Positions 1 to 22,642 of a DNA stretch of 22,642 nt are shown here, in pieces. The first letter of the stretch is position 1. Each line of letters starts with the position of its first letter. A program made the translations under genes and the position numbers. Below the pieces are notes generated by a model. It made no database searches. It was not told the origin of the DNA and was given only the letters and a program-made list of their open reading frames with translations. This DNA comes from a virus (taxonomy: Duplodnaviria; Heunggongvirae; Uroviricota; Caudoviricetes), in the IMG/VR virus record IMGVR_UViG_2778261067_000001. One strand, given 5' to 3'.

Positions 1-2777
<2,777 letters not shown>

Positions 2778-2796
2778 TCATCACGCTCCATAAACG

Positions 2797-2817
2797 ACAA
2801 AACCGCCCGGAGGCGGT
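2797..2817 (-). terminator. Hairpin between I and J (ACCGCC-loop-GGCGGT) followed by a T-rich run on the minus strand; possible intrinsic terminator or RNA-stabilising stem
   Basis: Perfect 6-bp inverted repeat at 2802-2817; minus-strand RNA would read ACCGCC UCCG GGCGGU UUUGUCGUUU. Confidence 0.4.
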
Positions 2818-2837
2818 TTCACATAAAATGTTTTGCA

Positions 2838-4830: not shown

Positions 4831-4839
4831 CAGAGCCTC

Positions 4840-5169
4840 CTATGCCACGACCTGTTCAAAATCTGCCGTTATGGTTACCCACAGCGCCCCCACGCTTGCC
4901 GACCATTTACGACAAACCACCCTGATCGGTTTCCAGTCATAAGGTGGCGTCCACTGAAATGCACGGACGCCACCGTGCCGTTCCAGAAAGGCTTTTAAAG
5001 ATGGGTGTTCACATTTACGAACACGTATCGTCACGCTGTAAGTCGACAACTGGTTATTCAGTCCCGCCGCACGACGCTGTTCATAACCATCGCCCAGCTT
5101 CACTGTCACCACTTTCGGCTCTGATACCACATTCATATCCGGGCGCACTTTCCAGTGAAACGTCTCCAT
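4840..5169 (-). CDS. M: Minor tail protein M
   Basis: 109-aa ORF METFHWKVRPDMNVVSEPKVV...FEQVVA, lambda gpM-like; ATG overlaps the stop of H by 1 nt. Confidence 0.9.
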   Translation of the reverse strand: METFHWKVRPDMNVVSEPKVVTVKLGDGYEQRRAAGLNNQLSTYSVTIRVRKCEHPSLKAFLERHGGVRAFQWTPPYDWKPIRVVCRKWSASVGALWVTITADFEQVVA

Positions 5170-8100: not shown

Positions 8101-8234
8101 CGCTGCATACGGGCAGAAGACCGTTCTGCATCGCTGGCTGCACCATTCAGAAGGTTTTTGATACGGGGAATTTCATTTTTAAACTCTGCCGCATCAATCC
8201 CCAAATCAATGACCAGGTTGGCTATCTGGTCCAT
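5169..8234 (-). CDS. H: Tail tape measure protein (gpH-like), ~1021 aa from ATG at 8234
   Basis: Long coiled-coil-rich ORF; C-terminus ...IEINNDGTNGQIGPAALKAVYDLGKKAAADFMQQQARDGGRLSGAYR resembles the lambda gpH C-terminus. The track start at 8264 is a TTG; the ATG at 8234 (MDQIANLVIDLGIDAAEF...) has a GGAGGTG Shine-Dalgarno and aligns with the lambda H N-terminus. Confidence 0.9.
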   Translation of the reverse strand: MDQIANLVIDLGIDAAEFKNEIPRIKNLLNGAASDAERSSARMQRFMERQTQAARQTTQAASSAATAASVHAQTVEKNAQAHERMAREVEKTRQRMEALSQKMREEQAQAMALAEAQDKAAAAFYRQIDSVKQASAGLQELQRIQQQIRQARNSGGIGQQDYLALISEVTAKTRVLTQAEAEATRQKVAFIRQLKEQATRQNLSSSELLRARAAQLGVSSAAEVYIRKMERAGKATHSLGLKSAAARQEIGVLIGELARGNLGALRGSGITLANRAGWIDTLMSPKGMMLGGVIGGITAAVYGLGKAWYDGQKEGEEFNRQLSLTGHYAGVTAGQLWTLSRAISGNGITQHAAAGALAQVVGSGAFRGNDIGMVARAAAQMERSVGQSVSDTINQFKRLKDDPVNAAKSLDNELHFLTATQLEQIRVLGEQGRSSDAARIAMSALAEETGRRTADIDNNLNALGSTLQTLSDWWKQFWDAAMNIGREDSLDAQIATLQEKVSRAKRLPWTASSSQVEYDQQRLNDLQEKKRQKDLQDAKEQAERNYQEQQKRRNAENAALNRMNETEAARHQREIARINAMQYADQAVRDAAIQRENERYEKALASGKKKTRETRNDEATRLLLQYSQQQAQVEGQISAARQSAGIATERMTEAHKQLLALQQRISDLDGKKLTADEKSVLARKDELIQALTLLDVKQQELQKQTALNELKKKTIQLTSQLAEEERAQRQQHDLDIATVGMGDQQRQRYQVQLSLRQKYQQQLEQLRRDSEQKGTYNTDDYRKAEQALTESLNRQLNENRRYWQQLEVVQGNWKNGVLRAFQDFTVDADNTAETAEQVFSSAFSNMGNGLATFVTTGKLNFKSFTSSVLSDMAKILAQATMMKSIKGIGSVLGFDLSSLSLNANGGIYQSADLSRYSGTVVNRPTFFAFAKGAGVMGEAGPEAILPLRRGADGKLGVVADIGGSGMAMFSPQYNIEINNDGTNGQIGPAALKAVYDLGKKAAADFMQQQARDGGRLSGAYR

Positions 8235-8556
8235 AACGCACACCTCCGGAAATACCTTCCCCAAGATGCATCAGTTCTTCGTCCGTTCGCTCCGGTATCC
8301 CGTTCTCTTCCGGTAAAAGGCTGAAATCAGCCACCGCAGCATCACTGCTGCCGGACACCATTCTCACGATCAATGCCTTCAGCGAGGCAAACTGCGCATC
8401 CATCCACACATCACTGAAGCTCTGCATCCGGAAATAATCGCCCCACTCACCAAGCTCAGTGGCCGACATTTCCGACAGCATCCGCCGCCAGTCTGCCCGC
8501 CGGAACTCCCGGGCAAGCCGCATGACAAACTGCATTTCCCGCGTCAGGACTTTTCC
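8206..8556 (-). CDS. T: gpT portion of the G-T tail assembly chaperone, expressed by -1 programmed frameshift from G
   Basis: The -1 frame relative to G is open from 8568 down to the stop at 8206 (...GKVLTREMQFVMRLAREFRRADWRRMLSEMSATELGEWGDYFRMQSF...); it overlaps the last codons of G, the canonical G/T arrangement in lambda-like phages. Candidate slip site GGAAAAG at 8550-8556. Confidence 0.7.
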   Translation of the reverse strand, partial: GKVLTREMQFVMRLAREFRRADWRRMLSEMSATELGEWGDYFRMQSFSDVWMDAQFASLKALIVRMVSGSSDAAVADFSLLPEENGIPERTDEELMHLGEGISGGVRYGPDSQPGH

Positions 8557-8933
8557 GGCGTCAGCGCCTCATGCTCATCATCCACGGCATTATCAATGGC
8601 CCCCATACCGCTCAGCGACAGAACCATCTCCGCCCCCGCACCCAGGGCATCATACGACCATGTTGTAATAACGGATGCGCAAAGCGTCTCTACATCCTTA
8701 GACTGATCCGCATTCCACAGTGAGCGGGAAACCAGCCAGGCATTGATATCCATCCCCATCCGCAGAAAAGCAATCTGTCGTTCAGCCTCCGGCAGTTCTC
8801 CCTCCCCGGCATCAAACTTTGCCGTTCGCTGCTGAACAAACGTCAGATATTCAATTCTCTGCAGCCCGGACAGCTCACTGAGCACCACGGACTGTTTTTC
8901 ATAATTAAACGTGTCCTGTTTCAGAAACATCAT
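8544..8933 (-). CDS. G: Tail assembly chaperone G
   Basis: ORF MMFLKQDTFNYEKQSVVLSELSGLQRIEYLTFVQQRTAKFDAGE..., lambda gpG-like; ATG pair at 8933/8930 preceded by GGAG; the upstream part of the track ORF (to 8972) overlaps a terminator hairpin. Confidence 0.8.
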   Translation of the reverse strand: MMFLKQDTFNYEKQSVVLSELSGLQRIEYLTFVQQRTAKFDAGEGELPEAERQIAFLRMGMDINAWLVSRSLWNADQSKDVETLCASVITTWSYDALGAGAEMVLSLSGMGAIDNAVDDEHEALTPEKS

Positions 8934-8946
8934 GTTCTCCACCTGC

Positions 8947-8970
8947 AAAAAAGCCCCGCATAACCGGGGC
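8947..8970 (-). terminator. Rho-independent terminator downstream of major tail gene V
   Basis: Minus-strand RNA GCCCCG GUUAUG CGGGGC followed by UUUUUU; perfect 6-bp GC stem. Confidence 0.65.
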
Positions 8971-8990
8971 AAATGATGAGTATCGTCCTG

Positions 8991-9734
8991 TTAACCTGCT
9001 GCGCTGACAGTCACCGCAGTCACAGCCACAAAATTCCCGTCAGCGGTCATGCCCACAATGCTGACACTGCCCTGCTTCACGCCTTTTACCGTGGCCACAA
9101 GTCCGTTCAGGGTAACCGTGGCAGTCTGTGGATCTGACGAATGCACACTGATCGCTTTGTCACTGGCTCCGTCAGGTTTTACTGTAAAGGTCAGCGTGGT
9201 GGTTGCTCCCACTTTTACACTGGCAGACGCCGGTGATACTGTCAGCCCGGTAACGCTCACGGTTTCAGTGCCTTCCTCTGCCAGATACGGACGCCCCACA
9301 CCGCTGATTTTCACAGTGCGGGTCATCACGTCTTTTGAGGCAATGGTTTTACCCAGTGAGCTCAGCCAGCCACGGAAAACATCAACAGTGCCGTTGGGAT
9401 ATTTGATACGAAACGCGCAGACTTCACCGGAGTCGAACAACTGAACCAGTTTTTTCTGCCCGCTGTCACCCGGACGCCAGGCCAGCGTCGCCGAAGTATC
9501 ACCAACGGATTTCTGCCCCTGGGTTGTCGTTTTCCAGTCTGCATCTTCATCATCGAGATAAGTGTCATCTTCTGCATCAGCGGTCATTTCGCCAGGTTGC
9601 AGATCCTTCACCATCGCAAGACGCAGCCAGTCAGTGTCCGACAAAGGGTTCGCAAACGCATCGCCGTTGCCGGTATACATCCAGAACGTCGTCCCCGCAC
9701 CTTTCGTCTTTGCCAGTGGATTTGGTGTGGTCAT
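8991..9734 (-). CDS. V: Major tail protein V with C-terminal Ig-like (Big_2-type) domain
   Basis: ATG at 9734 preceded by AAGGAGGT; MTTPNPLAKTKGAGTTFWMYTGNGDAFANPLSDTDWLRLAMVKDL...YLDDEDADW...NGTVDVFRGW resembles lambda gpV; C-terminal ~90 aa are Thr/Val/Ser-rich beta-strand sequence typical of Ig-like decoration domains. Confidence 0.9.
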   Translation of the reverse strand: MTTPNPLAKTKGAGTTFWMYTGNGDAFANPLSDTDWLRLAMVKDLQPGEMTADAEDDTYLDDEDADWKTTTQGQKSVGDTSATLAWRPGDSGQKKLVQLFDSGEVCAFRIKYPNGTVDVFRGWLSSLGKTIASKDVMTRTVKISGVGRPYLAEEGTETVSVTGLTVSPASASVKVGATTTLTFTVKPDGASDKAISVHSSDPQTATVTLNGLVATVKGVKQGSVSIVGMTADGNFVAVTAVTVSAAG

Positions 9735-9744
9735 TACCACCTCC

Positions 9745-10146
9745 TTAATTCGTGTACGTGATCTGGTACGTGATTTCCGCCATCGCCCAGGTGGCCATCT
9801 CATTATCACGTTGATAGTTAAAACCGAGTGGGATCAGGGTGTCGATGAGTCCGGAAAGTGCCGGTATATCATTCAGGGCAGGGGAAATGGTGCTCTCCAT
9901 CCACATATCCAGCTCTGAATCCGGTGCCTGTGCCCGGATGAAGACGGCAATATGCAGAACAGCCTGCCAGTCATCTTCATCCGTCATTTTTCCGGTGTAC
10001 TGAGCATCACTCAGCCACACCGCCACGGCAGGCAGTTCCTGCGCATCAATAAATGCCGGAAGCCCGTCAAAAAACGTGGCGCTGTCTCCACACTGTTCCC
10101 GAAGGCGTGCCAGTACGGCCTGGCGGATTTGTGTATGTCGGTTCAT
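9745..10146 (-). CDS. U: Tail terminator protein U
   Basis: MNRHTQIRQAVLARLREQCGDSATFFDGLPAFIDAQELPAVAVWLSDAQYTG... aligns with lambda gpU (…ATFFDGRPAVFDE…FPAVAVYL…); ATG at 10146 overlaps the Z stop (translational coupling). Confidence 0.85.
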   Translation of the reverse strand: MNRHTQIRQAVLARLREQCGDSATFFDGLPAFIDAQELPAVAVWLSDAQYTGKMTDEDDWQAVLHIAVFIRAQAPDSELDMWMESTISPALNDIPALSGLIDTLIPLGFNYQRDNEMATWAMAEITYQITYTN

Positions 10147-10721
10147 CGGGTCAGCCATAACCTCAGTTGTTGTTTCAGTGCATACCCCAGCTGTTTCGGC
10201 ATTTCCGCAGCAATGATGTGGTCGCGGGCATCTTCAAATGCCTGTGTCAGCGGTCCGGACAGCGGGATTTTCACCACATCAATGGGGTAACGATTTTTGC
10301 CATCAATACGTCGCATCACGTGCCAGCGACCATTCGCCAGTTGCTGAATAAACGCATCCCGGAAAAGATATTTACCCACCTTCAGCACACTGCCACGGTA
10401 CTGCAGTTTTCCACCACGCCGGGCCAGTCTGACCCGGGCTGTCCCCAGCTTAATGGCGGGCAGATTGCCCCGGTTAACGCGGATCCTGGCCGTCATTTTT
10501 CCTGACGGACTGGCTTTAAACACCCGGACACGCTGACGTACCAGTTTCAGGGGGATCCCTTTCACCTGGTTATCTCCCGCAACGGTATTCCCGGCAACCT
10601 GCCGGGTGGCAACCGAGACCGCTTTCTGTGCCACACGGTTTATCGCCCATGCGCTGGCCTGTGGCACCATACGGGTATCAAGGCTGTTCAGATTGCGGAT
10701 GGCATTCTCAAGCCCCTTCAT
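10143..10721 (-). CDS. Z: Tail completion protein Z
   Basis: 192-aa ORF MKGLENAIRNLNSL...AFIQQLANGRWHVMRRIDGKNRYPIDVVKIPLSGPL..., lambda gpZ-like. Confidence 0.85.
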   Translation of the reverse strand: MKGLENAIRNLNSLDTRMVPQASAWAINRVAQKAVSVATRQVAGNTVAGDNQVKGIPLKLVRQRVRVFKASPSGKMTARIRVNRGNLPAIKLGTARVRLARRGGKLQYRGSVLKVGKYLFRDAFIQQLANGRWHVMRRIDGKNRYPIDVVKIPLSGPLTQAFEDARDHIIAAEMPKQLGYALKQQLRLWLTR

Positions 10722-10732
10722 CCCACACCTCT

Positions 10733-11008
10733 TTACTCAATAAAGATCATTGGCTTACCGTTAAAGCGTTCATGCCGTGTGACCGTCCATTGTTGTCCGT
10801 CATAAACAACGCGATCCCCGCGCCGTGGGCGGTATCCCGAAGAAAACACCACCAGAGAGACCGCAGGTCCGGACAGAGCATTCAGCTCTGCCAGTGTTTC
10901 TCCCGGGATCACAGTCATATCGACATCATTAATCGAGGCTGTCTTTCCCATCTTTCTGACCGTGATCGCATCCATACGCGCTGCCAGCCGGGAAAAGGGA
11001 TCAGACAT
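10733..11008 (-). CDS. Head-tail joining protein (gpFII-like, head-tail attachment family)
   Basis: 91-aa ORF in the position of FII (immediately upstream of Z); weak resemblance to lambda FII; assignment rests on synteny and size. Confidence 0.6.
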   Translation of the reverse strand: MSDPFSRLAARMDAITVRKMGKTASINDVDMTVIPGETLAELNALSGPAVSLVVFSSGYRPRRGDRVVYDGQQWTVTRHERFNGKPMIFIE

Positions 11009-11324
11009 TGAGTTTTACCGGCACTTCTTCTGCACTGGTTCCGGCATCTGCCCAGACAACCCCGACCAGCGGATCAGAGCCGCTGTTAGTCAGCTGAACT
11101 TTTCCGGACTTCAGATAAACCTTCTTACCCGTTTTCATGTCATCCGTTTTCAGCTTAGGCAGCATAAACACACCTTCGGTCATGCCGTCGCCTGTTTCAC
11201 CCTGTGGAATATCGGTCAGCGCCACCGCAAAAACATCACCCACCTGCACCAGCTCTCCGCTGCTGATGGCTGCACTGGCAACAATCGCCACCGTTTTTCC
11301 TTCTTCTACAAAATTCTTTGCCAT
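11001..11324 (-). CDS. Hypothetical head protein (possible head decoration or head completion protein), 107 aa
   Basis: ATG at 11324 (MAKNFVEEGKTVAIVASAAISSGELVQVGDVFAVAL...) preceded by GGAGACAG; lies between the capsid gene and the FII-like gene. Function inferred from position only. Confidence 0.5.
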   Translation of the reverse strand: MAKNFVEEGKTVAIVASAAISSGELVQVGDVFAVALTDIPQGETGDGMTEGVFMLPKLKTDDMKTGKKVYLKSGKVQLTNSGSDPLVGVVWADAGTSAEEVPVKLNV

Positions 11325-11367
11325 AACTGTCTCCGCACAGCCCCGTTCAGGGGCTGATTTCAGGTAC

Positions 11368-11386
11368 AAAAAAAGCCCTTACGGGC
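11368..11386 (-). terminator. Rho-independent terminator immediately downstream of the capsid gene, with a second GC hairpin (11338-11356) before the next gene's SD
   Basis: Minus-strand RNA GCCC GUAA GGGC followed by UUUUUUU; second stem CAGCCCC/GGGGCUG at 11338-11356. Confidence 0.6.
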
Positions 11387-11410
11387 CATCAGAGTTGTTG
11401 TCTGCGACGT

Positions 11411-13369
11411 TTACGCCGTACATTTCACCAGACCGCGGTGATCAACTGGCGCGACACCGGCGTCAATACGCACTTTCGTTGTCACGCCATCCACACTGAA
11501 GCCCTCCATCTGATCAATATATGGCGTATCCACACCGTTGAGATAAGCCACTTCAATCGTATCGGAGCCTTTTGACGCAGCCAGGTAGAAGGTGGTCTGG
11601 CTGTTATCATCAAGACGAGGCTCTGCAATAACGGTCGCAAAATCTTTCACCGGGTTAATAATACCGGCGTTAATGTCAGCCCCCTTGACACTTGAGGAGC
11701 GAATGACCTGGTTAGCAACAGACTCCATCGCCGTCGGTACCAGTACGAACGCAGGACGAATATTCAGATGACGCTCCCCCTCTTTCTGAACGCGCATCAA
11801 CTGGCGGGCTTTATCCAGCGATGCCACGTCCATTGCAGCGCTCTCCAGTACGTTTGCATGTTTCGCTTTATCGAACAGACTTACATTATCTGTGGAGATT
11901 TTCGGGTTAGACGTCAGAATGGCATAAACCAGATCGGCAATAGTGGATTTCGCCGCACGGCCCAGTTTCATCGGGACATCGGTCAGCATATTCAGATCAT
12001 CATTGATAATGGCCTGACGGGTGATACTGAACAGCTCGCCATAGGTCGCCAGTGCAATAGTGGCCTGTTTATCTCCGGTGGTGACGTATTTATATTCCGC
12101 CCCTTCACGCACCTGACGCAGAGCACTGAAGCCCCCCATACCCACACGATGGGCAATTTTAAAATCAGACAACTGACCTTTCCGCGTCCATTGTTCATAG
12201 GTTTCAGGAGCATCTTCCCAGCCCTGCAGAATGGCTTTGTTCGCAACATCCAGCAGAATATTACCGAAGTCAGACGTACTGTGGGTGAACGCCGCACCGA
12301 CCATCTGCATCGGGTTATAACCGGAAACCCCAATACCCCGTTCAGTCAGTGACATACGGGCATATTCACGCAGGGTCATCCCGTTGTAGACATTATCACG
12401 TTCGGTTTTTTCAAATCCGGCACGCGCCATCAGCGCCTGGCGGATCCCGTCCCCCACAAAATTACCGTTACCAGCATAAATATGAGCCGGTGTATTTTTA
12501 TTGGATGGCGTGGACTCGCGCCCCATCTCGTTCAACAGCTTTTCGCGGGCCTGCTCCAGCGAACACTCAGGATCGGCAAGACACTGAGCCTGCAGCGTCT
12601 GATAACGCCCGCCAAACATGGCAAACAGATCATTAATACCGTTTACACGCGCTTTTTGCTCTGCCAGTACCTGCGCACGGATACTGTTTTCATCCACCAC
12701 GGGTGCTGCTGCCTGCACTGGCGTCCGGGAGGCTGCAGGTTCATCATCCTGTACGCGTGGAGCACTGTTGCGTGGCGGAGTAATCATGTTTCGAATGGAT
12801 TCCGGCATCTTTTTAAATTCCTCTGTACGTTTTGACTGAATACATGCCATTGCCTTAACGGCTGGCGTCACCTGATCAGCAAATCCATGTGCCAGACATT
12901 CGGCACCGGACATCCAGGTCTCATCCGCCAGCATGGCAGCAATTTCATCGGTGGTTTTCCCGGTTTTCTGTGCATAAGCGGGTAACAGAACCGCCTCAAC
13001 CTTATCGAGCAGGTCGGCATAGGTGCGCATGTCCTCCGCATCACCGCCCGTAAAGCCAAATGGTTTATGAATCATCATGAAGGTGTTTTCCGGCATAATG
13101 ACCGGGTTTCCCACCATCGCAATGACCGACGCCATTGACGCCGCCACACCGTCGACATAAACGGTAATGGACGCACCATGTGTTTTCAGCGCATTAAAAA
13201 TGGCGATGCCTTCAAAGACATCGCCACCCGGTGAATTGATATGGAGATTAATGTGGGTGATATCGCCCAGTGCATTCAGATCACTGATAAACTGCTTCGC
13301 TGTAACACCCCAGAAACCAATCTCGTCATAAATATAAATATCCGCGTCACTCTGGTGACCAGCCTGCAT
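11411..13369 (-). CDS. Prohead protease (ClpP/S14-like) fused to major capsid protein, ~652 aa from ATG at 13369
   Basis: N-terminal region has ClpP hallmarks: INSPGG, Ser nucleophile context GVAASMASV and His context MIHKPFGFTGG; the C-terminal ~400 aa is capsid-like. The track ORF extends to 13630 but overlaps the portal gene; ATG at 13369 lies 14 nt after the portal stop. Start is uncertain. Confidence 0.8.
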   Translation of the reverse strand: MQAGHQSDADIYIYDEIGFWGVTAKQFISDLNALGDITHINLHINSPGGDVFEGIAIFNALKTHGASITVYVDGVAASMASVIAMVGNPVIMPENTFMMIHKPFGFTGGDAEDMRTYADLLDKVEAVLLPAYAQKTGKTTDEIAAMLADETWMSGAECLAHGFADQVTPAVKAMACIQSKRTEEFKKMPESIRNMITPPRNSAPRVQDDEPAASRTPVQAAAPVVDENSIRAQVLAEQKARVNGINDLFAMFGGRYQTLQAQCLADPECSLEQAREKLLNEMGRESTPSNKNTPAHIYAGNGNFVGDGIRQALMARAGFEKTERDNVYNGMTLREYARMSLTERGIGVSGYNPMQMVGAAFTHSTSDFGNILLDVANKAILQGWEDAPETYEQWTRKGQLSDFKIAHRVGMGGFSALRQVREGAEYKYVTTGDKQATIALATYGELFSITRQAIINDDLNMLTDVPMKLGRAAKSTIADLVYAILTSNPKISTDNVSLFDKAKHANVLESAAMDVASLDKARQLMRVQKEGERHLNIRPAFVLVPTAMESVANQVIRSSSVKGADINAGIINPVKDFATVIAEPRLDDNSQTTFYLAASKGSDTIEVAYLNGVDTPYIDQMEGFSVDGVTTKVRIDAGVAPVDHRGLVKCTA

Positions 13370-13382
13370 CCTGAACCAGGAA

Positions 13383-14891
13383 TTATTCTTCGGACTGGTC
13401 GTCGGTGTGCTGCGGCTCCTGTCGTTTCGTTGCGGCACTGCTGCCTCCTTTATCACTGGCCGGATCGGTATCAAATACCAGATCCAGCTTGCGGTTTTCA
13501 TCAATTTCTGCCTTGCGCCGACGTTTGACATCATCCGGATTACGACCACCTGCACGTACCCAGTCTGATTCTGTCGCCGCTCCACCACGAATCTGAATTT
13601 TCCAGGCCTCAGCCTCCTTAACAGGGTCAATCCACGGCATCACCGGTCCGGAATACACCGCGGTATACAGTGAAGAACGGTCAAGATCGCGGGGTAGCCT
13701 GATAACACCGGATGCCACAGCCTGTTTCAGCCAGGCACGATACATCGGGCGGGTGACGGCACCAATAAACCAGTCCTGCAGGATCAGGTAGCCATCAGTG
13801 GATTCAACCAGCTCCTGACGCTGGGCGCTGTAAGTGCCGTTATAGTTGCGCGCTGTACTGGAAAAACTCAGACGACTGCCCGCCGCCACGGCACGCAACT
13901 GACCATTACGAAAAGTTTCAAGGTTAGGATTGGGGCGATCCGACTTCACCATTCCGATTTCTTCGCCGGGTTTCAGATCGTCGTAAATAATGCCTGGCTG
14001 AATGGTAAGCTCGCGTTCATTCTCCTTGCTGTCATTACCATCCGTTTCATAGCTCTGTCCGTCGCCTTTGCGGATGTACATCCCCAGAGCAGCAGCGATC
14101 CTTGCTGCAGTCAGCTCAGAATCTTCATATTCTTTCAGGGCACTGAGGCGGATCAGCACACCGGACAATAAAGACGTCCCGCGCATCTGGTGCAGACGGC
14201 GAACAAATTTAAGATGCAGCATTCGCTCTGCATCCACTTCTTTGGTTTCCATCTGCCGTCCGGATACAGGACGACTTTTATACACCAGATATTTTTCGGG
14301 ACGCCCCCAGTCATCAACAAACACGCCCTGATTCAGCCTGTTGCTCTCATCACTGGTCATGGGAATAAAGTCTGGCTCGAGTGCCTCCAGCCAGAAATGA
14401 ACACCGGCAGAAGGCGTCAGGCTGTTTATGCGCCCGGAAACCATCTGGGCAAACACCTCACCATCGCGCAGCCAAGTACGCAGCATCAGACGTTCCAGCA
14501 TCGGACGGGTAAACTGCCCGGTAACTTCCGGACTGACAGACCATTCACTCCATCGGGTGCGTATCTCCGCTGCCAGATCACGGGCAATGGCCCCATTGCG
14601 TAATACCGGATGTGGCTCGACAATAATCCCGTTTTTCCCCACCACCCGTTCTTCCAGCTTGTCAAATACACCAATGACCAGATCGTGGTTGTTATCAAGG
14701 TAACGGGCCTGCTCACGTAACGACACGGCCCCGTAGAGGCTTAACTGGTCGGCAGTTCGGTTTTCCCGCCGGGCTTTGTGTGTCCGCGTCGTTTTTACGG
14801 CCTCATAAGCCTGGATCACCGCCCGGGAACGCAGCCTTGCCGCTTTCCATCCTGGTGAAAAAACGCCAATCACATCATCAAGAATTGCCAT
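13383..14891 (-). CDS. B: Portal protein (lambda gpB family)
   Basis: ORF of ~500 aa directly downstream of the gpW-like gene; ATG at 14891 (MAILDDVIGVFSPGWKAARLRS...) overlaps the W stop (TGATG); size, position and acidic C-terminus fit a portal. Confidence 0.85.
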   Translation of the reverse strand: MAILDDVIGVFSPGWKAARLRSRAVIQAYEAVKTTRTHKARRENRTADQLSLYGAVSLREQARYLDNNHDLVIGVFDKLEERVVGKNGIIVEPHPVLRNGAIARDLAAEIRTRWSEWSVSPEVTGQFTRPMLERLMLRTWLRDGEVFAQMVSGRINSLTPSAGVHFWLEALEPDFIPMTSDESNRLNQGVFVDDWGRPEKYLVYKSRPVSGRQMETKEVDAERMLHLKFVRRLHQMRGTSLLSGVLIRLSALKEYEDSELTAARIAAALGMYIRKGDGQSYETDGNDSKENERELTIQPGIIYDDLKPGEEIGMVKSDRPNPNLETFRNGQLRAVAAGSRLSFSSTARNYNGTYSAQRQELVESTDGYLILQDWFIGAVTRPMYRAWLKQAVASGVIRLPRDLDRSSLYTAVYSGPVMPWIDPVKEAEAWKIQIRGGAATESDWVRAGGRNPDDVKRRRKAEIDENRKLDLVFDTDPASDKGGSSAATKRQEPQHTDDQSEE

Positions 14892-15103
14892 CAGAACCTC
14901 GCCAGCCGGTACCCGGGATGCCCCCGTCGTCGTGTAATCAGAGCCGCAAGGCGGCGCTCCCACTCCTGCCGTCCCTGCCGGATCTCAGATAAGTTTTCCA
15001 TGGTCATCTGCTGACCATTAAAGGTGACGGATTTTCCGTCCAGCACCGCCATTTCAGCTTCCGTATAACGCTGAATCATGGCTTCGATATCATTCTGGTT
15101 CAT
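14891..15103 (-). CDS. W: Head-tail connector / head completion protein (gpW-like)
   Basis: 70-aa ORF MNQNDIEAMIQRYTEAEMAVLDGKSVTFNGQQMTMENLSEI...RRRGHPGYRLARF; C-terminal RRRG motif and size match lambda gpW; ATG at 15103 overlaps the terminase stop (ATGA) and follows GGAGG. Confidence 0.7.
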   Translation of the reverse strand: MNQNDIEAMIQRYTEAEMAVLDGKSVTFNGQQMTMENLSEIRQGRQEWERRLAALITRRRGHPGYRLARF

Positions 15104-17199
15104 AACCATCCTCCGGAAGTCAGCCAGGGGTTAACATCGTCAGTTACTGTTTTCTTCCGTTTTTGTTTTTTAACAGGCGTGGATACCGGTTCCGGTGAGG
15201 GTGACGGTTCGGTACTGTCCGGGACACACTCCAGCCAGGTTTCCCGGCTCGCCCACTCCGGTGCATCCGGCCAGCGGATCTTTTCGTATCCATGCAGAAT
15301 GACCAGAGCCTCGGCATACACCATCAGGTCAAAAGCTTCGTTGGCACCGCGACCCGGCTTACTCCATTTCCCGTCACTGCTCCGCTCTTCATACGTCAAT
15401 TCGTCGTAAAACCAGCTCCCCAGCCAGTCAGGGAAATGCACATAGCCGGGACCTGGCGAGTCACGCCATAACGCGTTATTCACCCGGTCTTTCAGTGCAT
15501 CCGTCTGAAGAAGCCAGAGCGGCACATCACCTGCGGCCTGCGCCCGTCGGCCCGTTCGTCCGGTGTTATCAGGGAATGTACGGGTGATCAGTTTTGCGCG
15601 CCGGATGCTGTCGCCCTTAAACAGGTAAATACGTTTACCAAGGCCATCACGACGGCAACGACGCCAGAATTTATAGGCATTATCAGTGACCCCGTCTTCA
15701 CCGCCAGAGTCCACCGCCATTGCCATCAGTCGCATTTGTTGAGAAGGATCGGAGGCCAGCGGCCAGCTTTTATGAAAAACATCCGTCAGCAGGACATCCC
15801 AGTCTTCCGGATAGCTGGCCGGATCAATTCGCTGGCTCTCCCCGTCGCAGTCACTGCGCAATGACTGCGTGATATTGTAACGATCAATAATCCAGCGTTC
15901 GCCACGACTGCCATAGCCCGTTACCTGAACCACAAAACGGCGATGACGTCCCGCCTGCACATCCACTGTCGCCACAAGGAAATTAACGCCATCCGGCACA
16001 CTGCAGGAAGGAACTGGCTCTGCCCGCTGCTCAAGCAGTTCACTTTTTCGTTGCTCCATGCTGGCACGAGGAAGATAAGGCAATCCCCAGTCGGTGTTGA
16101 TAACCGCCCTGAGTGTTTCTTCGCTTCCTGTCGCTTCATACTCCTGTTCTGCAGTCAGTAATTTGTAAACCAGTTGCGCCCAGGTCTGATACGCAGCAGC
16201 TGGCCCTTCCATCCAGAAACTGGCGATACGGGAGCGGCGCGGTTCACCGGAAACGTTGCCGTTACGATCAATGACCTGACCTTCACGCAACCAGACTCCT
16301 GCACTATTGAGCTCACGCTTTTTCTCCGCAGTGATAATGCCGCTGCAGTGCGGGCAAAGTAGATACGCCGCCTCACTGGCTTTAAAGGGATCCGGTTCAT
16401 TACGGTAGCCGGTCATGGCATCCATAGCTGGCTGAAAATATTCACCGCAGTGCGGACATGGCCAGTACCAGCGGCGGCGGTCACCACGATTGTAAAGGGA
16501 AAGAATACCAGTCGTCGGTGGCGCTTCATGAGGCGACTTACGTCGCCATTTGCTGTCGCAGATGTCACGTCCCGGCGAGCTCTCCACCAGAGTCATCCCG
16601 GCGGACATAAATGTGGTGGTACGTTTTGAGGCCAGGGAGAAACCATCACCCTCGCTGTCGATATTCTCCGGAAAACGGTCGTAATCGGTTAAGGCGACAA
16701 ACCGGTAATCCGACGACGACATAATGTTGACCGAGGGCCAACCAATTTTAAGGAACGAGCCATCCCTGAACGTCTTATCATGGACATTATTGTCGTTACG
16801 ACGTGGACTCATTCTTTTCTTTACCGCCGCACTGCTTCTGAACGTTCTGTCGAGGCGCTTTTTAGAATGCTCGCGGGCCTTATCTTCGGTCATCTGCACA
16901 ACGAGCATGTCCGAAGGATCGCAAACGATGGTATAGACAATCCATCCATCGATCAGACCAATGGTCTTCCCTGTTCGCGCAGGACCAACAAAAATCACCG
17001 CATCGTATTCACGCGATGCCAGGCAGTTCATGGGCTCAATGATGTAGGGTGTCAGTTCAGGATCCCATGGCACCGAGTTACCAGCCCCCTTGGGAACACG
17101 CATGAATTTTTTAACAGCCTCCGAAATCGGCATGCGACGTGGTGGGGAAAATCCTGCCGATATGTCCCTTCCCAAATTTCGGGCTGATGAAAAACCCAT
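15100..17199 (-). CDS. A: Terminase large subunit (GpA family, cos-type)
   Basis: 699-aa ORF; ATG at 17199 preceded by AGGAGG with ~4-nt spacer; P-loop-like VGPARTGKT; Cys motifs WPCPHCGEY/LLCPHCSG similar to the lambda gpA ...ACPHCGEE... region. Confidence 0.9.
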   Translation of the reverse strand: MGFSSARNLGRDISAGFSPPRRMPISEAVKKFMRVPKGAGNSVPWDPELTPYIIEPMNCLASREYDAVIFVGPARTGKTIGLIDGWIVYTIVCDPSDMLVVQMTEDKAREHSKKRLDRTFRSSAAVKKRMSPRRNDNNVHDKTFRDGSFLKIGWPSVNIMSSSDYRFVALTDYDRFPENIDSEGDGFSLASKRTTTFMSAGMTLVESSPGRDICDSKWRRKSPHEAPPTTGILSLYNRGDRRRWYWPCPHCGEYFQPAMDAMTGYRNEPDPFKASEAAYLLCPHCSGIITAEKKRELNSAGVWLREGQVIDRNGNVSGEPRRSRIASFWMEGPAAAYQTWAQLVYKLLTAEQEYEATGSEETLRAVINTDWGLPYLPRASMEQRKSELLEQRAEPVPSCSVPDGVNFLVATVDVQAGRHRRFVVQVTGYGSRGERWIIDRYNITQSLRSDCDGESQRIDPASYPEDWDVLLTDVFHKSWPLASDPSQQMRLMAMAVDSGGEDGVTDNAYKFWRRCRRDGLGKRIYLFKGDSIRRAKLITRTFPDNTGRTGRRAQAAGDVPLWLLQTDALKDRVNNALWRDSPGPGYVHFPDWLGSWFYDELTYEERSSDGKWSKPGRGANEAFDLMVYAEALVILHGYEKIRWPDAPEWASRETWLECVPDSTEPSPSPEPVSTPVKKQKRKKTVTDDVNPWLTSGGWL

Positions 17200-17207
17200 T
17201 ATTCCTC

Positions 17208-17735
17208 CTAGAGACTCTCTCCTTCCTCATCAGGAATTAATTCAGCAGCACAAGCCTCGTAGGATTTTTCCTGAAGAGTGTATCGCAGGTCATCAATGGC
17301 CTGCTGTACAACGCCGACGGCCTGAGGAGTCAGAGCGCAATCGCGTTCAAGAACATCCGGAATTGTCTCCAGAACCTGGACGACAGCCTTTCTCATGGAC
17401 GAATAGACGATGACTACTTCATCAACTGGGATGAGTTTTCGCTGCTCCTTTTCCAGCTTGATCCTTTCATTTTCAGACTGGTACCAGTCCTTTCTCTCTT
17501 TCGGCTCCATACGGGATGGATCATGAACAGAGTCTGCTGCCTCATGCTTCACACTAAACAGGGCGGGCCCGACATGCTGCAGGGCGTAAACGGGGTTCCC
17601 CCTGACAGTCGCAGCCACAGGAGTGTTGGCCGCGAGGAGCCGTTTTTTTACTGTGTCCCGGTGAAGCCCAAAGGCCTCGGCGATTTTAAAAACACTCCAG
17701 TAATAAGCATCACCGATCCCGCTCACATTTGACAT
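17208..17735 (-). CDS. nu1: Terminase small subunit (Nu1-like, winged helix-turn-helix N-terminus)
   Basis: ORF directly upstream of the large terminase; MSNVSGIGDAYYWSVFKIAEAFGLHRDTVKKRLL... is a DNA-binding HTH-like N-terminus; ATG at 17735 has a GGAG ~7 nt upstream (alternative ATG at 17747). Confidence 0.8.
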   Translation of the reverse strand: MSNVSGIGDAYYWSVFKIAEAFGLHRDTVKKRLLAANTPVAATVRGNPVYALQHVGPALFSVKHEAADSVHDPSRMEPKERKDWYQSENERIKLEKEQRKLIPVDEVVIVYSSMRKAVVQVLETIPDVLERDCALTPQAVGVVQQAIDDLRYTLQEKSYEACAAELIPDEEGESL

Positions 17736-17747
17736 AAGCAACTCCAT

Positions 17748-17985
17748 CTGGCAGGTGAAAATCAGGTTTATTTATATATTTCAATTAATTGCAAACTGGT
17801 CTAATGACAGGAAGAAAAAAATATTGTACAGGTGAAAAGAGAAATAACTTTTAATTATCAATAAATTACCAAACATGCTGCCGCCGCCATGGAAATGCAA
17901 AAACTAGCCTTTTTCCGCGACGCTCCCGCCCCGTGGCAGGGGCCCCCACCGGGAGGACCCGACAGCCTGACAGCCTGACAGCCGT
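17748..17985. promoter_or_regulatory. cos: Candidate cos region (cosB / cosN / cosQ-like), ~180 bp upstream of the terminase small subunit
   Basis: Minus-strand sequence ACGGGGCGGGAGCGTCGCGG (plus coordinates ~17915-17935) resembles lambda cosN ACGGGGCGGCGACCTCGCGGG; AT-rich stretch between it and Nu1; two copies of CAGGTGAAAA (17752-17761 and 17829-17838); tandem GACAGCCT repeats at 17961-17983; spacing to the Nu1 start is similar to lambda. Confidence 0.5.
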
Positions 17986-18119
17986 GATGAGCATCTGATA
18001 CAGCGCTTTACATAATGGCATAGGAATAATTCAGAAGGACATCACAGCATGCCCACACAAATTAGTGTGAGTGTCCTGTTTCTTCCTACGCACAGGACTG
18101 ACGAGCATGAGGGGAAAAT

Positions 18120-18287
18120 ATGCGAACCATAAATGCCTCATCTTCAGCAATGCAACCGGCATCCGAACAGGACGATATTGTAAATTCACCTAATTACGAG
18201 GACATTGCAGTAGTTGAATTGCAGCTCTGTATTAGCCTGACAGTGACAGAATGCGATATTGACTCTGTCACAGGTGAAATAGTTTGA
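18120..18287 (+). CDS. Hypothetical small acidic protein, 55 aa (below the ORF-track size threshold)
   Basis: ATG at 18120 preceded by GAGGGG; translation MRTINASSSAMQPASEQDDIVNSPNYEDIAVVELQLCISLTVTECDIDSVTGEIV; no homology recognised; could be non-coding. Confidence 0.25.
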   Translation: MRTINASSSAMQPASEQDDIVNSPNYEDIAVVELQLCISLTVTECDIDSVTGEIV

Positions 18288-18307
18288 ATGATTAGCAGTT
18301 ATGGTGC

Positions 18308-18514
18308 TCAGTCAACCACCAGGGAATAATCCTTCGAATTCTTATCGTGCTTCACCAACGCTGCCTCAATTGCCCTGAATGCTTCCAGAGACACCTGATG
18401 TTCTATACATGCAATTACAACATCCGGGTAACTCATAGAAATGGTGCTATTAAGCATATTTTTTACACGAATCAGATCCAACGAGAGTTCATCAGCAGAT
18501 TGTTCTTTATTCAT
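18308..18514 (-). CDS. ybcW: Small prophage protein of unknown function, YbcW-like (68 aa)
   Basis: 68-aa [71 protein letters not shown]; resembles from memory the E. coli K-12 DLP12 protein YbcW, which also lies next to a terminase small-subunit gene. Confidence 0.6.
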
Positions 18515-18814
18515 TTTGTCGCTCCATGCGTTTGCTCGTCATCTAGCGGTTAAAATATTACTTCAAATCTTACTGCATAAAAGAGGAAAAGTATGAAAGT
18601 TTGAGTACATCGACCTTACATACATCTGTCGGTTGCATATCCCTCCTGGATGCCAGCAAGGCTCAATTTTGTTACGCAATCAACACTATTCATCAAAAAC
18701 AGGCTTAATATTTGACATAAATCATCAACAAAACACAAAGAGGTCAGACCAGATTGAAACAATAAACACGATAATGCTAACTACGCGCCATCGTATCACA
18801 TGGAAGGTTTACCA

Positions 18815-19225
18815 ATGGCTCAGGCTGCCATTTTTAAAGAAATATTCGATCAAGTGCGTAAAGATTTAAACTGTGAATTATTTTATTCTGAGCTAAAACG
18901 TCACAATGTCTCACTTTATATTTACTATTTAGCCACAGATAATATTCACATTGTGTTAGAAAACGACAACATAGTGTTAGTAAAAGGACTCAAAAAGGTT
19001 GTAAATGTTAAATTCTCCAGAAACAAGCATCTTATAGAGACCTCCTATAATAAGTTGAAATCAAAAGAAATCACATTTCAACAATATAGGGAAAATCTTG
19101 CTAAAGCAGGAGTTTTCCGATGGGTTACAAATATCCAGGAACACCAAAGATATTACTATGCCTTTGATAACTCATTACTATTTACTGAAAGCATCCAGAA
19201 AACTACACAGATCTTACCACGCTAA
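18815..19225 (+). CDS. ydfO: DUF1398 family protein (YdfO/YbcV-like), unknown function
   Basis: [54 protein letters not shown]...[39 protein letters not shown]; ATG at 18815 has GGAAGG 7 nt upstream (alternative ATG 18800); the only convincing plus-strand gene in the window. Confidence 0.65.
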
Positions 19226-19321
19226 ACCATAACGTCCGGCTTCTCTCACTCCTGAGCCGGACTGCATTGGTTTAATAAAAACCATCAACAATTGTGATTT
19301 AGATATTCGGAACCATTCAAA

Positions 19322-19347
19322 TATAACAAAACCCCGTAAAAACGAGG
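19322..19347 (-). terminator. Terminator-like hairpin downstream of the gnsB-like gene
   Basis: Minus-strand RNA CCUCG UUUUUA CGGGG followed by UUUUGUUAU (one G-U pair in the stem). Confidence 0.45.
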
Positions 19348-19376
19348 TTTATGGATAAATTTTATTATTGAATACA

Positions 19377-19553
19377 TCAGATTAAATTAATCTTGACATC
19401 ATAGCTTTCAAGACCCGTCATTTTTTCCCGTGCGGTAAACTGAATACTGGTAACTTCTTTCCCGGTCTTTTTCTTAAGTTCAATAATTTTTTTTGTTATA
19501 TATTCAGAAATATCTGCTTCTGCTTTTGTTTTTAAGTTTTCAATATTCATCAT
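19377..19553 (-). CDS. gnsB: GnsB-like small protein (Gns family), 58 aa
   Basis: Not in the ORF track (under 60 aa). Minus-strand translation MMNIENLKTKAEADISEYITKKIIELKKKTGKEVTSIQFTAREKMTGLESYDVKINLI; ATG preceded by AAGAGGAA; closely resembles E. coli GnsA/GnsB as I recall them (...TGKEVSEIRFTAREKMTGLESYDVKIKIM). Confidence 0.7.
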   Translation of the reverse strand: MMNIENLKTKAEADISEYITKKIIELKKKTGKEVTSIQFTAREKMTGLESYDVKINLI

Positions 19554-19721
19554 TTCCTCTTTTAGTCTGTTATGACTTTCCAGTTACACAGTAAGTCGAT
19601 TATATGGTGCAAACGTGTAAAAGATAAGATGAAACATCGCAATAATCAACATACGATAGTCTAAATTTTACACAAACAGACAAAGAGAATTTTCCTGAAT
19701 TATCAATACAATAGCATCAAA

Positions 19722-19994
19722 TCAACTCAAGAGCCTTATTGCTGCTTCCAGAATTTCTTCTGAAGTAACATGTCGATCCGCGGCTACATAAATGACTTTA
19801 TGATCTCCGGTCAGAGATGGAAACCCTGCGGCCATTACAGTAAGGTGTGTTTTTTCGCCATTTGGATATTCACGCATGATGGTGTTAACTCCAGTCATCG
19901 CTGGCACTACCACTGCTGGTTCAGAGTTAAAAAAAACTATGATTTTTTTCATGATGTTACCGTAGTATGTGAGTATCCATCGAATAGATACCAA
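19722..19994 (-). CDS. Hypothetical small protein (76-90 aa) between the cspI-like and gnsB-like genes; by synteny possibly the counterpart of Qin ynfN
   Basis: Track ORF begins at a TTG (19994) preceded by GGGAG; internal ATG at 19952 gives MKKIIVFFNSEPAVVVPAMTGVNTIMREYPNGEKTHLTVMAAGFPSLTGDHKVIYVAADRHVTSEEILEAAIRLLS. No recognised motifs; start and reality uncertain. Confidence 0.4.
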   Translation of the reverse strand: MVSIRWILTYYGNIMKKIIVFFNSEPAVVVPAMTGVNTIMREYPNGEKTHLTVMAAGFPSLTGDHKVIYVAADRHVTSEEILEAAIRLLS

Positions 19995-20016
19995 GCAAAA
20001 AAGCTCCCGAAGGAGC
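19995..20016 (-). terminator. Rho-independent terminator (GCUCC UUCG GGAGC + U6) downstream of the cspI-like gene
   Basis: Perfect 5-bp GC-rich stem with UUCG tetraloop followed by UUUUUUG on the minus strand. Confidence 0.6.
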
Positions 20017-20223
20017 CTTCATTTTCACTTTTTTAAATCCAACGACAGACGGCTGGCATTTAAGTATTGTGAAATATTATCAAATGTAATCATCATTGAT
20101 TTACAAAAGATACATTTTGCCCCGAAAGGATTCATGTCAGAAACATCAAAAGATGATGTTCTATACTGGGAACCATGACAACACGGGCATCTAAAGTGAA
20201 TATGGTTTGTAATATTGTCTACC

Positions 20224-20436
20224 TCAAAGCGCCACTACATGAACAGCGGCAGGACCTTTAGGTCCGTTCTCAATACCAAATTCAACTTCCTGATTCTCAG
20301 TTAATGTTTTGAAATCGTTGCTCTGAATTGCTGAGAAATGGACAAACACATCTTTGCTGCCATCTTTCGGCGTGATGAAACCAAAACCTTTTTCAGGGTT
20401 AAACCATTTCACTAAACCAGTCATTTTGTTAGACAT
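20224..20436 (-). CDS. cspI: Cold-shock protein, CspA family (CspI-like)
   Basis: 70-aa [73 protein letters not shown] with RNP1 (KGFGFI) and RNP2 (VFVHF) motifs. Confidence 0.92.
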
Positions 20437-20620
20437 AATTATTACCTTTTGAAGAAATTAGCCCTTGGGCAGAATGGTCCGAAAAAAAATATCAGAGAGA
20501 AAAACCAACAAGGAAATCTCAAGAGGTACAAATAATAAAATTATAACAATGACTGCTTCAGATAAATTTGTAACAAACCAGAACACCATTAACGCATGAT
20601 TAACCACCCATAGCAAGGAT
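20437..20620 (-). promoter_or_regulatory. Putative long AT-rich 5' UTR / promoter region of the cspI-like gene
   Basis: ~360-bp AT-rich non-coding gap upstream of cspI; CspA-family genes characteristically have ~150-nt regulatory leaders (established knowledge); boundaries not determinable from sequence alone. Confidence 0.35.
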
Positions 20621-20798
20621 TACTTTTGTAAAGAAAAACACAGCAATGAAAGAATAGCTTTATTTATTAATAAAACGTGTCATTCTGATTAAGACCTTTT
20701 ATCTTACCCTTAAGATTTCAGGAATTTTGGCTCATGGAAGAGTCCTTTTTATTTAAATTTTACATTCCGCGATGTAAATGTTCCGATTTAATATTACC

Positions 20799-21822
<1,024 letters not shown>

Positions 21823-21826
<4 letters not shown>

Positions 21827-22134
21827 ATATATTTATGATGAGGACGCTCGTGCTTATTGGCAGGATTTTCAATCTTAAAGGAGTACTGATGCTGCAGATA
21901 AGACTCAACTTTTTCTGACAATTTTTCTGCTACTTCCAGGAAGACTTGCCGGACGCTCCTTCTGGCTGCTGCCTCATAAAACTCCAGCGCAGCTCCTTCA
22001 ACACGGTCCATGGCGACATCCAGGTCAAAAATTTCACCGTCAAAGCGTTCCTTGTCCTGTAAGGCTACAGTTACCGTAACTTTATTCTCAAAATTACGGA
22101 CTCCTTTCACAACCAGTTCATAGTCTTGAGTCAT
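21823..22134 (-). CDS. ydfR: DUF1327-family protein (YdfR-like) inserted between holin and endolysin
   Basis: 103-aa ORF MTQDYELVVKGVRNFENKVTVTVALQDKERFDGEIFDLDVAMDRVEGAALEFYEAAARRSV...; GAGGAGAG Shine-Dalgarno; position matches ydfR in the K-12 Qin lysis cassette. Confidence 0.7.
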
Positions 22135-22138
22135 TGGA

Positions 22139-22354
22139 TTACTCTCCTCTCGCAGCCTTACGCCTGTCTTCTTTAATCTTGAAATAAAGATTTGTCAGAT
22201 ACGTCAGCAGGCCAAAAACCAGGCTACCCAGCACACCGATTGCAGCCCACTGTGACGGAGTTACTTTATCGAGTAACTGTAATGCCCAGAAACCAGCATT
22301 ACCCGCCGATGTGCCATAGGCAACACCTGTTGTTAACTTATCCATTGATTTCAT
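22139..22354 (-). CDS. S: Pinholin (phage 21 S / EssD-EssQ family), 71 aa with dual-start motif
   Basis: ATG at 22354 gives [71 protein letters not shown]; two TM segments and a charged C-terminus; Met1-Lys-Ser-Met4 dual start as in S21 (longer form antiholin, shorter form holin); the track ORF start at 22432 is upstream read-through. Confidence 0.9.
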
Positions 22355-22432
22355 ATCCTCACCCCGATGTACACGGATGGTGCAATATGTTTGAAAAAGA
22401 TCGGAGTCTACGGGGTAGTTTTGACAGCACAC

Positions 22433-22642
22433 GTTGTTCTCAACGGCGCTAAAGAAACATACACATTAAAAATGTGAGTAATTATTTTGAAAGAAAGTCA
22501 TATATAAAATAATAATACGAGAAATGTTTTCATATTTAGTGTACTGTATACGGCCATTTATACAGTGGATTTGCCCCTATATTTCCAGACACCTGTTATC
22601 ACTTAACCCATTACTGGCTTGCTGCCGTAGATATTCCCGTGG
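22433..22642 (-). promoter_or_regulatory. Putative late-gene regulatory region upstream of the lysis cassette (expected site of the Q-dependent late promoter, qut and leader)
   Basis: AT-rich non-coding sequence immediately upstream of the holin, containing a perfect 8-bp inverted repeat ACTGTATA-N8-TATACAGT (22543-22566); assignment by position in a lambdoid late operon; no promoter hexamers confidently identified. Confidence 0.35.

Follow-up and report, generated by a model that had tools for sequence, protein, structure and literature searches.

In the Qin prophage of Escherichia coli K-12, a set of small genes follows the lysis region in the order rzpQ-cspI-ynfQ-ynfR-ynfN-gnsB-(ydfO), and the right end of phage lambda and of the K-12 prophage DLP12 is arranged as Rz-bor-ybcV(lambdap78)-ybcW(lambdap79)-(ylcI)-cos/nohD. 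The K-12 chromosome also carries a paralogous cassette, cspG-ymcF-ymcE-gnsA, that is not in a recognisable prophage. Previous work on these genes reported that cspI is cold-induced upon a temperature downshift (Wang et al. 1999, as given in a paper citing it), that cspI, ynfQ and ynfN are co-induced with a common dependence on SspA, that cspI mutants are outcompeted in long-term stationary phase, and that plasmid-borne gnsA or gnsB relieves growth defects at low temperature and increases the content of unsaturated fatty acids. Here, we analysed a stretch of 22,642 nucleotides (nt) from a tailed phage (IMG/VR record IMGVR_UViG_2778261067_000001; the window) that carries genes of both kinds in an AT-rich island between the Rz/Rz1 spanin genes and a cos site (Table 1). 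We find it likely that the island represents phage morons in the Rz/Rz1-to-cos slot of a lambda-like prophage of the Tritos/mEp460 type, and that they serve as cold- and stress-responsive lysogenic-conversion cargo; this degree of confidence applies to the overall picture and is lower for the single mechanistic steps.

The island spans 2.87 kb from the Rz stop codon (20799) to cosN. Its GC content (17932-20798) is 0.370, compared with 0.546 for the structural-gene part 1-17931 and 0.456 for 20799-22642. In 500-nt windows, GC drops from 0.50-0.60 in the flanks to 0.32-0.45 over ~17750-21000, with the lowest window (0.316) at 19251-19750, and the individual island genes range from 0.30 (gnsB) to 0.42. 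The records of Tritos and of phage cdtI have their first base exactly at the cosN-like site GGGCGGGAGCGT. Based on the drop in GC and the boundaries at these coordinates, we conclude that the AT-rich island, which had been proposed in a first-pass annotation of the window from sequence alone, is real.

The gene set was taken from the RefSeq annotation of E. coli D3, which is 99.9% identical and names seven genes in the island. All seven open reading frames (ORFs) are intact in the window; only the DUF1398 gene lies on the plus strand, and the other six are on the minus strand. The first-pass annotation had listed cspI, a 76-aa gene (ynfN), gnsB, a DUF1398 gene and a ybcW-like gene, all of which are present and had been assigned to the correct families, but it lacked the small genes ynfQ and ynfR, which are real. 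Likewise, the mixed orientation that it described comes down to the one plus-strand gene, and the terminators that it assigned to the genes are found after ynfQ, gnsB and DUF1398 (hairpin and U-run) but not after ybcW, where the hairpin lacks a U-run.

Comparison with Qin showed the same gene order and orientation as in the window. The DNA is 96.7% identical over window positions 18737-21300; CspI, YnfQ and GnsB are 100% identical and YnfR agrees at 20 of 21 residues. By contrast, Qin is truncated whereas in the window the prophage context is intact and includes cos, terminase, head and tail genes; ynfN is frameshifted to 51 aa in Qin and has 76 aa in the window; a ybcW-like gene stands in place of Qin ynfO; and the packaging gene encodes a DUF1441 protein in the window compared to a Nu1/Noh protein in Qin. 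Moreover, the DUF1398 gene of the window is the DLP12/lambda allele. Lambda (47023-48090) and DLP12 are 89-90% identical to window 18162-19244 and have in common with it the divergent DUF1398-ybcW pair as well as the downstream inverted repeat, whereas bor and ylcI are absent from the window and the cold-shock module takes the place of bor. Because one part of the island has the identity of Qin and the other part that of lambda and DLP12, we conclude that the island, as judged from these alignments, is a mosaic of a Qin-type module (19329-20616) and a lambda/DLP12-type module (18236-19262).

The paralogous K-12 cluster is more distant. Its DNA is 73-74% identical to that of the island, CspI and CspG are 79% identical, and a crude ratio of nonsynonymous to synonymous divergence (pN/pS) between the paralogues is 0.2-0.3. 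In the K-12 cluster, ymcE overlaps both of its neighbours; in the window, a terminator, ynfR and ynfN occupy that position, and gnsB forms a unit by itself. Tritos, which is prophage 3 of the adherent-invasive E. coli strain LF82 (OV696610), is 99.7% identical to the window over 17932-22565 and 97.9% identical over the structural genes, and carries the same island with few point differences only; its record annotates a short ynfN (156 nt) and leaves ynfR unannotated. Tritos has been reported to form virions and plaques and was imaged as a siphovirus, consistent with the impression of the first-pass annotation that the genes sit in an intact late region; this late region is of a functional phage type.

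Among close relatives, the interval between Rz and cos varies. PhiR47_1 is recorded as a complete phage genome, shares its head, tail and lysis genes with the window and is 95.7% identical to it across heads and tails; its matches are at window positions 1-17103, at 17835-18136 and then from 21293, i.e. it has no island. mEp460_ev081 carries the island without DUF1398 (18690-19277 are absent), lambda has bor, ybcV and ybcW in this interval, and cdtI has another ORF. Because the island is absent or varied among close relatives, we conclude that the Rz-to-cos interval is a slot for variable cargo and that the phage can do without the island. A variable, dispensable insert of this kind is the defining pattern of morons, and the suggestion that the island is accessory moron cargo is borne out by the same comparisons. 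A 3.3-kb island query matched in part in 3423 of 5426 complete E. coli genomes, with at least 80% of the query present in ~438, and insertion sequence (IS) elements interrupt the island in some strains. In prophages of E. coli and Citrobacter, the same four-gene cassette is found between Rz and differing terminases of at least three types.

CspI has a cold-shock domain and carries KGFGFI and VFVHF as its RNP1 and RNP2 motifs. Upstream of its gene, the cspA element of Rfam (RF01766) matched at 20197-20582 with 112.8 bits (gathering score 78; E 4e-29) over the full model (positions 1-428). This match places the start of the cspI mRNA near 20582 and gives a 5' untranslated region (UTR) of ~146 nt. 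A candidate promoter lies 6-7 nt upstream of the base aligned to the start of the Rfam cspA mRNA model. The ATT start codon of ynfQ (20211-20213) is 7 nt past the cspI stop codon, and a GAGG motif overlaps this stop codon. YnfQ has two CxxC pairs, CPCC and CIFC, and is zinc-ribbon-like; it is 66% identical to YmcF, with a crude pN/pS of 0.25 relative to ymcF, both genes have ATT as the first codon, and the RefSeq product name for ynfQ is 'cold shock small protein YmcF'. Because ynfQ starts with ATT, the mechanical ORF list contained only a 36-aa fragment of it, and the gene was missed by the first-pass annotation. Among 36 homologous loci, the probable first codon of the YmcF-like gene is ATT in 25, ATC in 3 and ATG in 5. 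YmcF-like genes, ynfQ and ymcF among them, have this ATT behind a good Shine-Dalgarno sequence, and a start codon other than AUG is thus conserved in a cold-shock operon.

The hairpin between ynfQ and ynfN folds with -14.9 kcal/mol (z -2.9) and lies inside the ynfR reading frame. A GC-rich hairpin followed by a T-run is found right after the stop codon of the YmcF-like gene in 17 of 35 related loci, and the stem sequences differ. The ynfR ORF is present only in Escherichia-type copies, in one of which it is cut to 12 codons, and the hairpin is kept in diverged cassettes without the ORF. In K-12, tagged YnfR (YnfR-SPA) was reported to be induced by cold shock. Because the hairpin is kept with varied stems and ynfR is restricted to Escherichia-type copies, we conclude that the conserved element is the terminator; going by these alignments, ynfR may be a young by-product ORF that overlaps it.

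The C-terminal 51 aa of YnfN are 100% identical to K-12 YnfN. The K-12 gene is a remnant: a T8 run of the window (19936-19943) is T7 in K-12, and the resulting -1 frameshift removes the first 25 codons. The 76-aa protein is the form conserved in Citrobacter and other genera. An AlphaFold2 (AF2) model of YnfN has a mean confidence score (pLDDT) of 87.6 and consists of five strands and a C-terminal helix. GnsB and GnsA are 65% identical, and the GnsA structures 4XO1 and 4XO2 match GnsB at E ~1e-20.

Published RNA-seq data are available for the Tritos lysogen (PMC9928086), and we assigned the rows of its S1 table by coordinates and gene length. Normalised reads were 955 for cspI, 274 for gnsB (174 nt), 51 for ynfN (156 nt), 32 for ybcW and ~9 for DUF1398 (8.9, in lysogeny broth (LB)), compared with a prophage median of 10.3 and with 8 for Rz, 6 for the endolysin gene and 14 for terS. 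Transcription from the lysogen, which the first-pass annotation had named as a test of its own proposal, is accordingly on record for cspI and gnsB in Tritos. The lower reads at ynfN than at cspI are consistent with a leaky terminator, and the rise at gnsB, to 5-fold over the upstream ynfN, with a promoter of its own. In LF82, ybcW rises from a log2 value of ~5 in LB to ~9-10 after 6 h in Dulbecco's modified Eagle medium (DMEM) and in macrophages, i.e. ~30-fold. The Tritos paper counts CspI and 'YnfN' among the morons. In the Tritos sheet of its S1 table, the product labels are one row off from the coordinates, and another supplementary table labels the genes differently: by position and length, the row 'YnfN' (LF82_0907, 174 nt, 27-fold over background) is gnsB, the row 'YbcV' is the 207-nt ybcW, and the row 'GnsB' is the 426-nt DUF1398 gene.

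In the mechanism that we propose, cspI would be transcribed from its own promoter, the position of which we infer, and the long cspA-type 5' UTR would make its expression responsive to cold and stress. The cspI-ynfQ transcript would provide RNA-chaperone and antiterminator capacity together with a small zinc-ribbon-like protein. The leaky terminator inside ynfR would gate ynfN so that only a fraction of the transcripts pass; Csp proteins can promote antitermination, and they may help read-through of this terminator into ynfN. gnsB, with its own promoter and terminator, would shift the membrane lipids towards unsaturated fatty acids. The genes of the Qin-type module would in this way be expressed in the lysogen independently of the repressed late operon, and CspI and GnsB together would probably benefit the host in the cold as well as during long-term stationary phase. 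DUF1398 (ybcV-like) and ybcW form a separate lambda-type module, in which only ybcW is clearly condition-dependent in its expression.

Several observations weigh against this interpretation. All minus-strand genes of the island are co-oriented with the late operon. The candidate promoters of cspI and gnsB were identified by eye, and neither was called by the consensus scan. The phenotypes of GnsB stem from overexpression, and the Pfam title of PF08178 reads 'GnsA/GnsB toxin of bacterial toxin-antitoxin system'. The expression data are from the 99.7% identical relative Tritos and were obtained at 37 °C, not in the cold. Finally, a Foldseek search of PDB with the YbcW model gave no match, and a structure search with the YnfN model gave no structural neighbour.

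The orientation of the genes would also be compatible with a role in the lytic cycle, in which the minus-strand genes are carried on the Q-antiterminated late transcript, CspI, together with the cspB that relatives carry upstream of the holin gene, acts as an RNA chaperone or antiterminator that sustains late transcription and translation in the cold, and GnsB conditions the membrane for lysis or assembly. cspI, ynfQ, ynfR, ynfN, gnsB and ybcW all lie on the strand of the late operon from Rz to cos, the antitermination activity of Csp proteins would suit such a role, and a second csp gene is present just upstream of the holin gene in Tritos and Qin. However, the island-free PhiR47_1 is recorded as complete with the same structural and lysis genes, the island genes have a thermosensor UTR and terminators of their own, and their transcription in the uninduced lysogen exceeds that of the silent late genes 5- to 90-fold; we regard a lytic role as unlikely. 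The title of PF08178 raises the alternative that GnsB is the toxin of a toxin-antitoxin (TA) or addiction module that stabilises the prophage, with the upstream small protein as antitoxin. ymcE-gnsA is listed among the type II TA pairs of E. coli, and ynfN, upstream of gnsB, encodes a protein of 76 aa, the same length as YmcE. Nevertheless, YnfN is unrelated to YmcE and the window contains no YmcE homologue (best tblastn E 2.5); ynfN and gnsB are 171 nt apart, and the ynfQ-ynfN terminator precedes both, in contrast to the 11-nt overlap of ymcE and gnsA; in 29 of 46 genomes, the YnfN homologue is not accompanied by gnsB; gnsB is transcribed 5-fold over ynfN in the lysogen without harm; and gnsB on a plasmid rescues growth instead of blocking it. 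A TA module is in our estimate very improbable.

A different question is whether the ybcW-like gene, DUF1398 and ynfN are cargo for anti-phage defence, superinfection exclusion or anti-defence. Morons are known from the Rz-to-cos slot and, according to the literature, often provide protection from other phages; ybcW is strongly induced in DMEM and macrophages, and the YbcW, DUF1398 and YnfN proteins are all without an assigned function. However, PADLOC returned nothing significant (the best matches were a generic CSD model for CspI, a REase_II hit of 18.8 bits, which is below threshold, and a weak hit of 12.5 bits), and Pfam and NCBIfam scans detected no nuclease, NTPase, TIR, SIR2 or membrane-pore domains, in agreement with the first-pass annotation, which had seen no classical defence-system domain. 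Moreover, the link of YnfN to csp and ymcF-like genes extends beyond prophages, and transcription of DUF1398 in LB is not above background. We find it quite unlikely that these genes are defence cargo. Finally, the low GC of 0.37, the decayed copies in K-12 with the ynfN frameshift, and the IS interruptions in some strains could point to decaying, H-NS-silenced AT-rich DNA without function. Against this, the seven ORFs are intact and several of the proteins are 100% identical to those of K-12 across distant strains, pN/pS between the paralogues is ~0.2-0.3, the cassette is syntenic across genera, and it is transcribed in the Tritos lysogen. Decay without function can be put aside as extremely unlikely, and moron cargo of the lysogen is the reading that we favour.

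Table 1. Positions of the island features and the flanking genes in the window
Feature	Position	Strand	Evidence and remarks
Candidate cspI promoter, TTGCTA-17 nt-(TGc)GTTAAT	20588-20616	-	read by eye; AT-rich stretch upstream
cspA-type 5' UTR of cspI (thermosensor), ~146 nt	20437-20582	-	Rfam RF01766
cspI (70 aa)	20224-20436	-	PF00313 (CSD), 108.4 bits over 5-69; 100% identical to K-12 CspI
ynfQ (62 aa, ATT start)	20025-20213	-	PF23641 YmcF-like, 111.8 bits; 100% identical to K-12 YnfQ
Intrinsic terminator/attenuator between ynfQ and ynfN	~19995-20020	-	GAAGGCUCC-UUCG-GGAGCUUUU and U-run
ynfR (21 aa)	19957-20022	-	RefSeq annotation; 20/21 residues as in K-12 YnfR
ynfN, full-length form (76 aa)	19722-19952	-	RefSeq annotation; phrog_3425 at 7e-54
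Candidate gnsB promoter, TTATCT-17 nt-TATAAT	19599-19627	-	read by eye
gnsB (57 aa)	19377-19550	-	PF08178, 120.2 bits over 2-55; 100% identical to K-12 GnsB
Intrinsic terminator after gnsB	19329-19350	-	terminator scan; fold -11 kcal/mol, z -2.7, then U-run
Hairpin after DUF1398, likely terminator	19234-19262	+	-19.7 kcal/mol, z -5.1, U-run
DUF1398 gene (136 aa, YbcV/YdfO family)	18815-19225	+	PF07166, 147.9 bits; antisense to late transcription
ybcW-like gene (68 aa), lambda/DLP12 type	18308-18514	-	phrog_657 at 5e-47
Inverted repeat just downstream of ybcW	18236-18273	-	TGTGACAGAG...TCTGTCAC; no U-run; -15.8 kcal/mol, z -2.6
cosN-like cohesive-end site	17920-17931	-	GGGCGGGAGCGT then CGCGG; left island boundary
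Small terminase gene (DUF1441)	17208-17747	-	PF07278, 151.7 bits, and phrog_141; first gene past cos
Large terminase gene	15100-17199	-	beyond the small terminase gene
Rz spanin gene (DUF2514)	20799-21296	-	right island boundary; Rz1 embedded at 20849-21121
Lysozyme gene	21293-21826	-	late genes
YdfR/DUF1327 gene	21823-22134	-	late genes
Holin gene	22139-22354/22432	-	late genes

The protein encoded by the DUF1398 gene is 90% identical to YbcV (DLP12) and 78% identical to YdfO (Qin), and matches the YdfO structure (PDB 2HH8) at E 8e-67 over 136 residues. PHROG labels it 'head protein'; we did not adopt this label for a gene that is separate from the structural module, reads in the opposite direction and is not expressed in lysogens. 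The ybcW-like protein is 91% identical to YbcW of K-12 (DLP12) and had no match in Pfam or PDB. The YbcW family is narrow: an exhaustive HMMER search gave 165 representatives, which are only close lambdoid relatives and fragments. The AF2 model of YbcW is all-alpha and of low confidence (pLDDT 67.6). Hundreds of error-laden YbcW variants are found on ENA contigs of ~3.5 kb, most likely reads or assemblies of lambda control DNA, and a 90% identical copy is filed under the plant Dovyalis caffra, probably as a contamination.

The inverted repeat downstream of ybcW is conserved in lambda, DLP12, 2H10, mEp460 and PhiR30_1. It overlaps the site of a 55-aa acidic ORF (18120-18287, plus strand), which the first-pass annotation had listed as a possible gene and which we judged by an alignment of six relatives. 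Among the relatives aligned, the ORF is open only in the window and Tritos; a 1-nt deletion and/or stop codons are present in 2H10, mEp460_ev081 and PhiR30_1, and its 5' third is replaced by unrelated sequence in lambda and DLP12. It matches phrog_4035, a PHROG built of ORF calls, and has no RefSeq annotation. Because it is frameshifted or stopped in relatives, we conclude that the ORF is not a gene; from the alignment, what is conserved at this site is DNA, including the inverted repeat at 18236-18273. Similarly, two 52-aa ORFs (18031-18189 and 20458-20616) had no credible family match and were rejected; the second sits inside the cspI 5' UTR.

A scan for sigma-70 consensus promoters gave 6 promoter-like sites, compared with 10.7 in shuffled sequences. 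Because this is below the shuffles, promoters in the island were identified by eye only. The candidate gnsB promoter was missed by the scan because its -35 element agrees with the consensus at 3/6 positions only. An Rfam scan (E up to 1) detected the cspA element and otherwise a match to a small nucleolar RNA, which we rejected as spurious (26 bits, gathering score 55), and a tRNA search found none. The cosN of lambda, GGGCGGCGACCT, agrees with the site in the window at 8/12 bases, and the CGCGG is common to both; despite this lambda-like cosN, the small terminase is a DUF1441 protein and not of the Nu1/Noh type.

To follow the cassette beyond E. coli, we surveyed YnfN homologues in 46 species-representative genomes of Enterobacteriaceae (Escherichia, Citrobacter, Klebsiella, Raoultella, Kluyvera, Enterobacter and Scandinavium). 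A csp gene lies upstream of ynfN on the same strand in 37 of the 46 genomes, with a YmcF-like ORF between the two in 36; gnsB is downstream of ynfN in 17, and phage lysis genes are near ynfN in ~13. In one enterobacterial assembly, two diverged YnfN paralogues (35% and 60% identical; 3037-3264 and 4001-4228) flank a csp-ymcF-like pair; this locus adjoins a gene of the isocitrate dehydrogenase family (Iso_dh), and no phage lysis genes are in view. A contig 100% identical to the island is binned as a metagenome-assembled genome of Veillonella parvula, and an enterobacterial csp-ymcF-ynfN locus is filed under Chryseobacterium sp.; both look like binning or contamination errors.

The first-pass annotation had considered the island its best candidate for undescribed function and had stated that these gene families survive in K-12 only in Qin and DLP12. 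The first does not hold for the locus as a whole, nor does the second hold. All genes but one are named in K-12 or in the RefSeq annotation, and two of the proteins, CspI and GnsB, have identical, characterised counterparts in K-12. Moreover, cspG-ymcF-ymcE-gnsA is present on the K-12 chromosome, lambda has the DUF1398-ybcW pair, and YnfN is found with csp and ymcF-like genes across Enterobacteriaceae. The island is already known, i.e. it is annotated in K-12, widespread in E. coli and described as expressed morons in a near-identical phage. Given the annotation in K-12 and the expression in a near-identical live prophage, we consider the island ordinary.

The analysis corrects the gene list of the island in that it adds small genes missed by ORF scanners, i.e. 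ynfQ with its ATT start and ynfR, and removes the spurious 55-aa ORF. Moreover, the window provides an intact picture of the decayed Qin locus, including a YnfN of 76 aa, a cos site and functional packaging genes alongside, and indicates that one phage can combine the Qin-type cold-shock module with the ybcV-ybcW module of the lambda/DLP12 type. It is possible, though on balance unlikely, that csp, the ymcF-like gene with its AUU start codon, the terminator, ynfN and gnsB form a self-contained, mobile cold-acclimation unit, in which cold-induced CspI or the CspA of the host would antiterminate at the ynfR hairpin and turn YnfN on and the AUU codon would tie synthesis of the YmcF-like protein to the cold initiation machinery. 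If so, lambdoid phages would spread a regulatory circuit and not merely an extra copy of a csp gene.

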